DNA from: Naegleria gruberi
Taxonomy: Eukaryota
Assembly (NCBI GenBank): GCA_000004985.1
Contig: GG739357.1
Reading direction: 5' to 3' (one strand)
DNA length: 1,644 nt
The position numbers and the translations under genes are program-made. The notes beneath the pieces were generated by a model. The model saw only the letters and a list, made by a program, of their open reading frames with translations. It had not been told where the DNA came from and did no database searches. Shown here piece after piece: positions 1-1,409 of the stretch; position 1 is the first letter of the stretch; each line of letters starts with the position of its first letter.

Positions 1-388
1 GATAATTTTCAATGGAAATCCATATGGATACATTCAATTAGTTTCTTGAATCCAAAATTTAAATCGCATAAAAAGTACCACAATTTTATAACCGCACTTT
101 TCACACATTCAAAACCAATATCACAAACCTCACAAATGAAACTTGAGAAAATCATTGACTGTACTTCTACAGGATCTTTTCTGTAGGAATACATAAACTC
201 GACTTTTTTGAGTCAATCTGACCTTTGAGGTTAACCAAGATGAAGACTCTGTAGTCACATATCTTGAGCATGATATCGAACTGGAAACATGCTTCGCTGT
301 AGGTTTCCTCGTTCATAGATGATTGCTGCATTCCTTACCAGCCATGGTTTGTGAATGGGGGATTTGTGAACCTGCAGATTGGTACCTT

Positions 389-438
389 AAACTTTTTATC
401 AATTAATAGAAAATTATTTTAAAACTATGACATAGATG
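389..438. repeat. Direct repeat, copy A (29-bp high-identity core 389-417 plus a diverged extension)
   Basis: Core AAACTTTTTATCAATTAATAGAAAATTAT (389-417) matches 876-904 at 27/29 positions. Similarity continues with indels (ACTATGACAT..AGATG versus ACTATTAACATCAATAGATT). Confidence 0.85.
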
Positions 439-780
439 CTAATATGTGCAATTAAATTCGAATATCAACAACACTTTTTCCTTTTATTAATCAACATGGT
501 TAAATGCTCACTTCTGAAGGAACAAGCACGACAACTAAAATGTTTGGTTATTTTGTCTTGGAAATCCTCTTCAAAGAAGTTCACCACAACCGATTGTGTT
601 TGAAAAAGCAAATATTTGAAGACTCAAATTCGAAATTTGATCGTTTATTGATCAACCACAAGTTTCACTTTCCAAATAGATTAAATTCAAAGGTGATAAA
701 TAAATGGTCACGTAGCAAGCTTATCTAAACAACAAACTTACTGAACCAACAATCAATAGATTCGTTGCCTTCACTGTTCA

Positions 781-797
781 TACAGTCAAAGACTGTA
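781..797. other. Perfect hairpin-forming palindrome (7-bp stem, 3-nt loop) inside a locally GC-richer segment
   Basis: TACAGTC AAA GACTGTA spans 781-797 within 765-835 (…GCGGGATAGTCGCCATATTCCTGGCAGGCTTCCCGTCC…). This stretch stands out in GC content against AT-rich flanks. Its function is unknown. Confidence 0.3.
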
Positions 798-875
798 GCG
801 GGATAGTCGCCATATTCCTGGCAGGCTTCCCGTCCAAAATTAATAATTGAAATGTTACAAATATCACATACAACA

Positions 876-938
876 AAACTTTTTACCAATTAATAGAACA
901 TTATCAACAACAAATCCACTATTAACATCAATAGATTG
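876..938. repeat. Direct repeat, copy B (core 876-904 plus a diverged extension carrying a (CAA)3 insertion)
   Basis: Core AAACTTTTTACCAATTAATAGAACATTAT (876-904) is 27/29 identical to 389-417 and in the same orientation. The two cores start 487 bp apart. Confidence 0.85.
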
Positions 939-1409
939 GTTTCAAGAAGTAAGCAGACAGCTTTTAATTTGGGAAGTGGAAGATTTACTTATGATTTCGA
1001 TAATCATTCTTATACCAGGTGCTGAAATAGCATTCCTCAATTTGGAATATGTTGTTGGAATTTTGCTATTTGCAATGGGAATATTGCACACCGTTAAACG
1101 ATCTGATGATTTGCTTGCATTCATATAGATGTCGTTTGGGATGGAGATGATAAACGGCTTAATGAAATTTCCAAAGAATTCAAACTTTATTATAAGGAAT
1201 TGAAAGAGCTTCCCTCAAAGACTGTTGAGGATTTAACTTTAATAAATTAATTTAATTGAGTTGATTGATCAGAAATAGCTCTGTTAGCTCCGTCATTCTG
1301 AATTAACCAATAAATCAAATTTTCAGAATCTGATCTTCAGGGAATTAAGTGAATCACACCCAATTGACTTCTATCATTTCTTGATAATAATACTTGGGTG
1401 ATGAAGGTT

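Follow-up and report, generated by a model that had tools for sequence, protein, structure and literature searches.

Short direct repeats that abut an inserted stretch of DNA are a familiar feature of LINE-mediated insertions, whether these are truncated LINEs, SINEs or processed pseudogenes. TT|AAAA is the nick-site consensus of L1-type endonucleases in target-primed reverse transcription, structured modules are common ahead of the tail at retroposon 3′ ends, and target-site duplications (TSDs) typically span ~5–20 bp, most of them being under about 20 bp. In literature of the early 1980s, direct repeats of 16–21 bp were reportedly described around human U1, U2 and U3 pseudogenes. Of a different nature is the snRNA 3′ box, GTTTN0-3AAARNNAGA, which is the Integrator-dependent 3′-end signal of Pol II snRNA-type genes (PMC9006982). 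A further system for comparison is the spliced leader (SL) SL-B1 of Hydra, whose sequence is confirmed in two reports (PMC7986045, PMC3273482), together with the dispersed SL-like loci of the same organism (PMC7986045, PMC7346339).

The locus analysed here lies in a window of 1644 nt (the whole stretch of DNA under study; 34% A, 32% T) and carries two copies of a 29-bp direct repeat, the first of them close behind a U3 small nucleolar RNA (snoRNA) gene (Table 1). With LINE-mediated insertions it shares short direct repeats abutting the enclosed segment, a TT|AAA-like junction, a candidate 3′ tail rich in A ahead of copy 2, a non-coding presumed insert with a structured 3′ region, and flanks that are unrelated to one another; it departs from them in its longer repeat of 29 bp, in a tail of 52% A, and in that no RT, tRNA, 7SL or 5S part is recognised. 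Retroposed snRNA and U3 pseudogenes are likewise associated with short direct repeats, and a weak box-like stretch at the 5′ end of U3 adds to the likeness; here, however, the supported repeats bracket DNA downstream of U3 and not U3 itself. The position of copy 1 (+6 to +34 after U3, same strand) recalls the snRNA 3′ box, whereas the 29-mer is off the consensus, has double the length and shows much higher conservation from one copy to the other, and copy 2 is without a known snRNA-type gene upstream. The resemblance to Hydra SL-B1 and its dispersed relatives consists of a colinear series of CACATAC, AAACTTTTTA and TAATA within sequence that is AT-rich in both cases, but controls deprive the match of significance, and neither a donor nor an Sm site lies in the right orientation here. 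The repeat proves shorter and sharper than an earlier sequence-only reading of the window had described it, and is best interpreted as a duplicated insertion target site downstream of U3.

A sharply bounded 29-bp direct repeat

The direct repeat is real and far beyond chance. Its copies start 487 nt apart, lie in direct orientation at exactly the coordinates first proposed, and differ at 2 of 29 positions, for example GGTAAAA in copy 2 vs GATAAAA in copy 1. None of 200 dinucleotide shuffles of the window contained two matches to the degenerate 29-mer. The best ungapped self-match scored 23, where Markov-1 simulations gave 11.3 ± 1.0 (maximum 15, n = 300), and the repeat reached E = 1.7e-7 in a blastn self-comparison of the window, in which all other self-matches had E ≥ 0.07. 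The initial claim of a non-chance duplication is thus borne out by shuffles, simulation and self-comparison alike. A third, degenerate copy considered at 462–497 was rejected (p = 0.05 and 0.55).

The repeat is sharply bounded at all four edges. Similarity had been thought to continue 20–30 bp further 3′ with indels, to ~938, which does not hold: the flanks are at shuffle level. Gapped local alignment returned nothing beyond the 29-bp core. In anchored alignments of 20–100 nt of flank on either side, the fraction of shuffles scoring at least as well as the observed sequence was 0.35–0.96, and in a second set of eight anchored searches seven were null, among them all four on the 3′ side (0.14–0.96). 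The sole hint came from the 5′ side, where 857–871 matches 114–128 at 13 of 15 positions (p 0.005–0.04, not robust to multiple testing). Because similarity is confined to the 29-bp core, the description of the duplication as an old event with indels is left without basis. The last 8 nt of U3 (AGATTGGT, 376–383) reappear at 933–940, 29 nt past copy 2, at chance level (E ~43), and this recurrence probably contributed to the impression of a 3′ extension.

Table 1. Positions of the repeat copies, the segment between them and the neighbouring genes and candidate features within the 1644-nt window
Feature	Position	Strand	Details
U3 snoRNA gene (full length)	155–383	+	RF00012, 74.8 bits
Junction ACCTT|AAAC at left edge of copy 1	384–392	+	Similar to TT|AAAA nick sites
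Repeat copy 1	389–417	+	AAACTTTTTATCAATTAATAGAAAATTAT; T5 run at 393–397
Segment between copies, 458 bp	418–875	+	No supported ORF, Rfam family or terminal inverted repeats
Structured module	745–840	+	Three hairpins: 747–767, 781–797, 798–833; z = −5.58
A-rich stretch	834–875	+	22/42 A (52%); last hairpin on one side, copy 2 on the other
Repeat copy 2	876–904	+	AAACTTTTTACCAATTAATAGAACATTAT; 27/29 identical to copy 1
tRNA-Lys(CTT) gene, eukaryote-type	1425–1497	−	ARAGORN; Rfam 66.4 bits

A U3 snoRNA gene beside the repeat

The window is made up of non-coding eukaryotic DNA rich in A and T. Its U3 and tRNA-Lys genes were both missed by the sequence-only reading, and U3 provides the decisive context for the repeat. 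The covariance match to the Rfam U3 model exceeds the gathering score of 34 (E = 4.6e-16) and extends over model positions 1–219; copy 1 begins 5 nt after the 3′ end of the gene on the same strand. When U3 was considered by domain, its 5′ domain scored best with the protist ACEA_U3 model and its 3′ domain with the general RF00012 model, a plant or fungal U3 model never being best for either; it is also unlike the U3 of Entamoeba. In the Rfam alignment both boxes are unusual, with AGAUGA in place of the consensus UGAUGA for box C and CAGA in place of CUGA for box D; the gene could be either a variant that is functional in its lineage or a pseudogene. Its predicted fold has a z-score of −5.44, and in sliding fold analysis it forms one of two + strand minima (z about −4). 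T-runs occur inside the gene, T6 at 204–209 and T4 at 177–180. On the − strand, T4 runs come after the tRNA-Lys gene.

No open reading frame in the window exceeds 93 aa. Its stop-free translations have no homologue among 5.8 billion clusters and no Pfam match above threshold, results on which a coding-exon reading was rejected. Searches of the published literature for sequence strings of the window found none.

The segment between the copies and a possible retroposed insert

Within the segment bracketed by the repeat lies the three-hairpin module, which includes the hairpin at 798–833 that had been pointed out before as a GC-richer element and is indeed real. Its fold was matched in stability by none of 200 shuffles and is comparable to that of U3; the sliding fold analysis placed its second + strand minimum at 736–910 (z −4.4 to −4.85), vs −1.4 to −1.5 on the − strand. 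The module could represent an unannotated small RNA or a retroposon 3′ module. An Rfam scan of 418–875 returned no family even at E ≤ 10, and the possibility that the segment contains a second, degenerate U3 was dismissed on finding no sequence or covariance-model signal. The 74-aa reading frame placed here by the sequence-only reading exists mechanically (504–728) and has neither a homologue nor Pfam support, and the record contains no related ORF. The 42 nt leading from the last hairpin to copy 2 are A-rich without being homopolymeric; only 1% of windows of this length have as high an A content (binomial p = 0.012, for a window chosen post hoc), and no excess of T marks the opposite, left end of the segment. 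The hairpins at 781–797 and at 1213–1230 (+) have the 11-mer TCAAAGACTGT in common.

The sequence-only reading had also offered the repeats as terminal repeats of a small element spanning 389–938. Such an element finds no support: the unit has no terminal inverted repeats (TIRs), no TSD outside the cores, no repeats of LTR scale, and neither a primer-binding site nor a polypurine tract. TIRs were looked for at 389/904, 389/938 and 418/875, each time with none found, and a check for TSDs flanking the unit, which had been suggested, gave none outside the cores except an 8-mer at chance level. An LTR element or TRIM was set aside, as the repeat is 29 bp long and sharp-edged vs the ~80 bp or more needed and has no flanking duplication of 4–6 bp; nor can a site resembling a tRNA primer be seen behind copy 1. 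A MITE or other TIR transposon was likewise rejected, with no TIRs and no short TSD outside them. What stands of the mobile-DNA suggestion is its plausibility, though with the roles changed: the cores are not element termini, and if mobile DNA was involved, the 29-mers would be the TSD and the insert would be 418–875.

The reading that we favour, at a probability of roughly 0.4, is that U3 is natively followed by the 29-mer, and that insertion of a ~458-bp retroposed sequence at this point turned it into a TSD. A ~458-bp RNA-derived sequence would have entered the U3 3′ flank in + orientation by target-primed reverse transcription, laid out as a body, the structured 3′ module (745–833) and a candidate, degenerate A-rich tail (834–875). 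Filling in of the staggered breaks would have left the 29 bp between the nicks on both sides of the insert, giving the order flank, TT, duplication starting AAA, insert, A-rich tail, duplication, flank; copy 1 would be the upstream and copy 2 the downstream TSD, with two substitutions acquired since. The empty site before insertion would have read U3-ACCTT-AAACTTTTTAYCAATTAATAGAAMATTAT-CAACAACAAATCC, with nothing between. On this account the features, taken together, would record a retroposition event, and copy 1 would still act as the 3′ flank of U3.

Several observations speak for such an insertion. Near-identical direct repeats (27/29) abut the segment, none of the four flanks shows more similarity than shuffled sequence, and repeats that abut a segment, with similarity ending at both edges, fit a TSD and not a decayed segmental duplication. 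The copies differ at 2 of 29 positions while their surroundings are unrelated. A structured module on the + strand lies just ahead of the A-rich stretch, and no coding capacity or known RNA family was found in 418–875. The A-rich right end, together with a left end that is not T-rich, would give the insert an orientation, and the CCTT|AAAC junction, being of the TT|AAAA type, counts for target-primed reverse transcription. Against the insertion stand the length of the presumed TSD, 29 bp vs a typical ~5–20 bp, which is long without being prohibitive, the lack of a homopolymer in the candidate tail and the post hoc choice of its window, and the closeness of 5 nt to U3, which would be either a coincidence, expected at roughly a few per cent by chance, or targeting. 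The presumed insert contains no reverse-transcriptase remnant, SINE head (tRNA, 7SL, 5S) or further family hallmark that could be found, and T5/T4 runs at 475–485 argue against a Pol III SINE transcript. A short direct repeat around a non-coding insert beside a small-RNA gene would be a routine genomic scar; the value for annotation lies in exposing the U3 snoRNA and tRNA-Lys genes and in flagging the ~90-nt structured module at 745–833 for an expression check.

Alternative explanations

The main alternative to an insertion, which we regard as rather unlikely, is that the 29-mer is a lineage-specific 3′-end formation or termination module of independently transcribed small-RNA genes, copy 1 serving U3 and copy 2 either serving an unannotated structured RNA at ~745–833 or backing up U3 termination. 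A start 5 nt past the end of U3, in the orientation of the gene, is what a functional-signal model predicts, the strongest + strand structure signal outside U3 sits just 5′ of copy 2, the T5 run is present in both copies, and the sharp edges of the repeat are also compatible with a discrete motif. Yet neither copy matches the 3′-box consensus with up to 2 mismatches (PMC9006982), nor the plant snRNA signal CAN3-10AGTNNAA, and the spacing is unequal, copy 1 following U3 by 5 nt, within the few to ~20 nt expected of a 3′ box behind a mature small-RNA end, whereas copy 2 is preceded only by the structured module, 42 nt after its last hairpin. Upstream of copy 2 there is no Rfam family even at E ≤ 10, and no promoter-like motif is held in common with the U3 upstream region at a significant level. 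Identity of 27/29 over 29 nt is, moreover, far tighter than in known 3′ signals. As for the T5 at 393–397, the T6 and T4 in the body of U3 argue against Pol III transcription of the gene and thus against this run as a Pol III terminator. The more specific proposal that the 29-mer is an undescribed, unusually long and well-conserved snRNA-type 3′-end signal of an AT-rich eukaryote, common to U3 and a new structured small RNA at ~745–833 (+), we consider unlikely and a little more so than the signal in general. If true, it would add a 3′-end signal and a small RNA, both of them new, from a lineage that has received little study, of relevance to research on snRNA and snoRNA biogenesis, and would overturn nothing.

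The remaining explanations are improbable to different degrees. Local duplication would make ~833–904 a U3-less paralogue of U3-flanking DNA, with the U3 body deleted from one copy or inserted into one, and we think this improbable. The 5′-side match of 857–871 to 114–128, upstream of U3, points that way, as do a resemblance of the U3 5′ flank (138–156) to copy 1 with a 12-nt gap (p 0.01–0.05) and early chains linking 95–128 or 51–156 with 772–904 (p 0.003–0.02); against this, the full colinear chain has p = 0.15 with either of two null models, all but one of the eight anchored flank tests are null, the likeness of 138–156 to the repeat is lost when copy 2 is the partner, the alternative chains are mutually incompatible, and no U3 remnant is detectable near copy 2. 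The simple segmental duplication that the sequence-only reading had listed as an option therefore lacks support, its chained alignments with the U3 upstream region reaching p = 0.15 as a whole. U3 itself as the insert, suggested by box-like sequence at its 5′ edge, was discarded for the same borderline values (p 0.01–0.05), which were not reproduced with copy 2. Equally improbable are two copies of a short dispersed repeat, be it part of a satellite, a MITE or a SINE, or else a sequence derived from a spliced leader. The AT-rich eukaryotic character of the window was counted in favour of dispersed repeats; its best match to Hydra SL-B1 is copy 2 plus lead-in (CACATAC..AAACTTTTTA..TAATA), and SL-related loci number in the hundreds in Hydra, where many of them lack a donor site. 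Two independent repeat fragments would, however, rarely have both edges equal to the base, the possible third copy is not significant, and the lack of TIRs weighs against a dispersed MITE. The SL-B1 match (p = 0.044) is outdone by that of an unrelated control SL elsewhere in the window (p = 0.006), and after either copy the + strand has no GT donor (within 40 nt) and no Sm motif, so that a spliced-leader exon was rejected as being at noise level vs controls. Most improbable of all is a minus-strand Sm-class or spliced-leader-like RNA gene, in which copy 2, read as ...UUCUAUUAAUUG|GUAAAAAG, would resemble an exon-donor junction. Its attractions are AAUUUUGG with hairpins 45 nt after the putative junction, an Sm-like AATTTTGG at 841–834 (−) directly before the hairpin 833–798, and GGTAAAA in copy 2 (GGUAAAA as RNA) where copy 1 has GATAAAA. 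Set against these, folding of the − strand (z −0.8 and −1.4) is no better than that of shuffles, Rfam has no snRNA or SL family that matches at E ≤ 10, copy 1 on the − strand leads straight into antisense U3, and the construction is built on motifs of at most 8 nt.

Database matches and further observations

Searches for the repeat beyond the window covered 241 million metagenome records and 596 billion bases of genome contigs. In these two prokaryote-dominated collections the 29-mer gave a single match each, one among metagenome contigs and the other among prokaryote genomes. The viral contigs contained no match to it, and searches with U3-specific strings returned no match. The two outside matches lie inside unrelated ORFs, one PAPS-reductase-like and the other SCO1-like and on the other strand, in different frames, and are chance occurrences in AT-rich coding DNA. 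A 23-mer of the repeat is found at L001 765–787 and L002 1763–1785, in unrelated prokaryotic or phage ORFs. It follows from such chance 23-mer matches that exact 22–23-mers of this composition are not unique in the two collections.

Some minor features were noted elsewhere in the window. The 9-mer TCCAAAATT is common to 51–59 and 833–841, reads as the Sm-site-like AAUUUUGGA on the − strand, and is individually at chance level; a hairpin or palindrome comes next at either site (29–18 and 833–798). At 594–662, weak C/D snoRNA matches occur on both strands (17 bits, E 3–5). Downstream of the tRNA gene by ~35 nt, a C/D-snoRNA-like layout of AUGAUAG, CUGA and UCUGA was seen by eye at ~1312–1388 (−), with flanking AUCAA/UUGAU complementarity that recalls tRNA-snoRNA dicistrons; Rfam gave nothing there at E ≤ 1. 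The second-best self-match of the window is an inverted similarity between 1308–1339 (+) and 617–650 (−), with 29 of 36 positions identical when gaps are allowed (E = 0.07). Two overlapping stop-free stretches, 847–1125 (+) and 1214–945 (−), comprise 93 and 90 codons, longish for DNA of 32% GC, and have no homologue and no Pfam match above threshold. The hairpin at 1213–1230 (CCTCAAAGACTGTTGAGG, followed by T-rich sequence) is the sole terminator-like site in a consensus scan.
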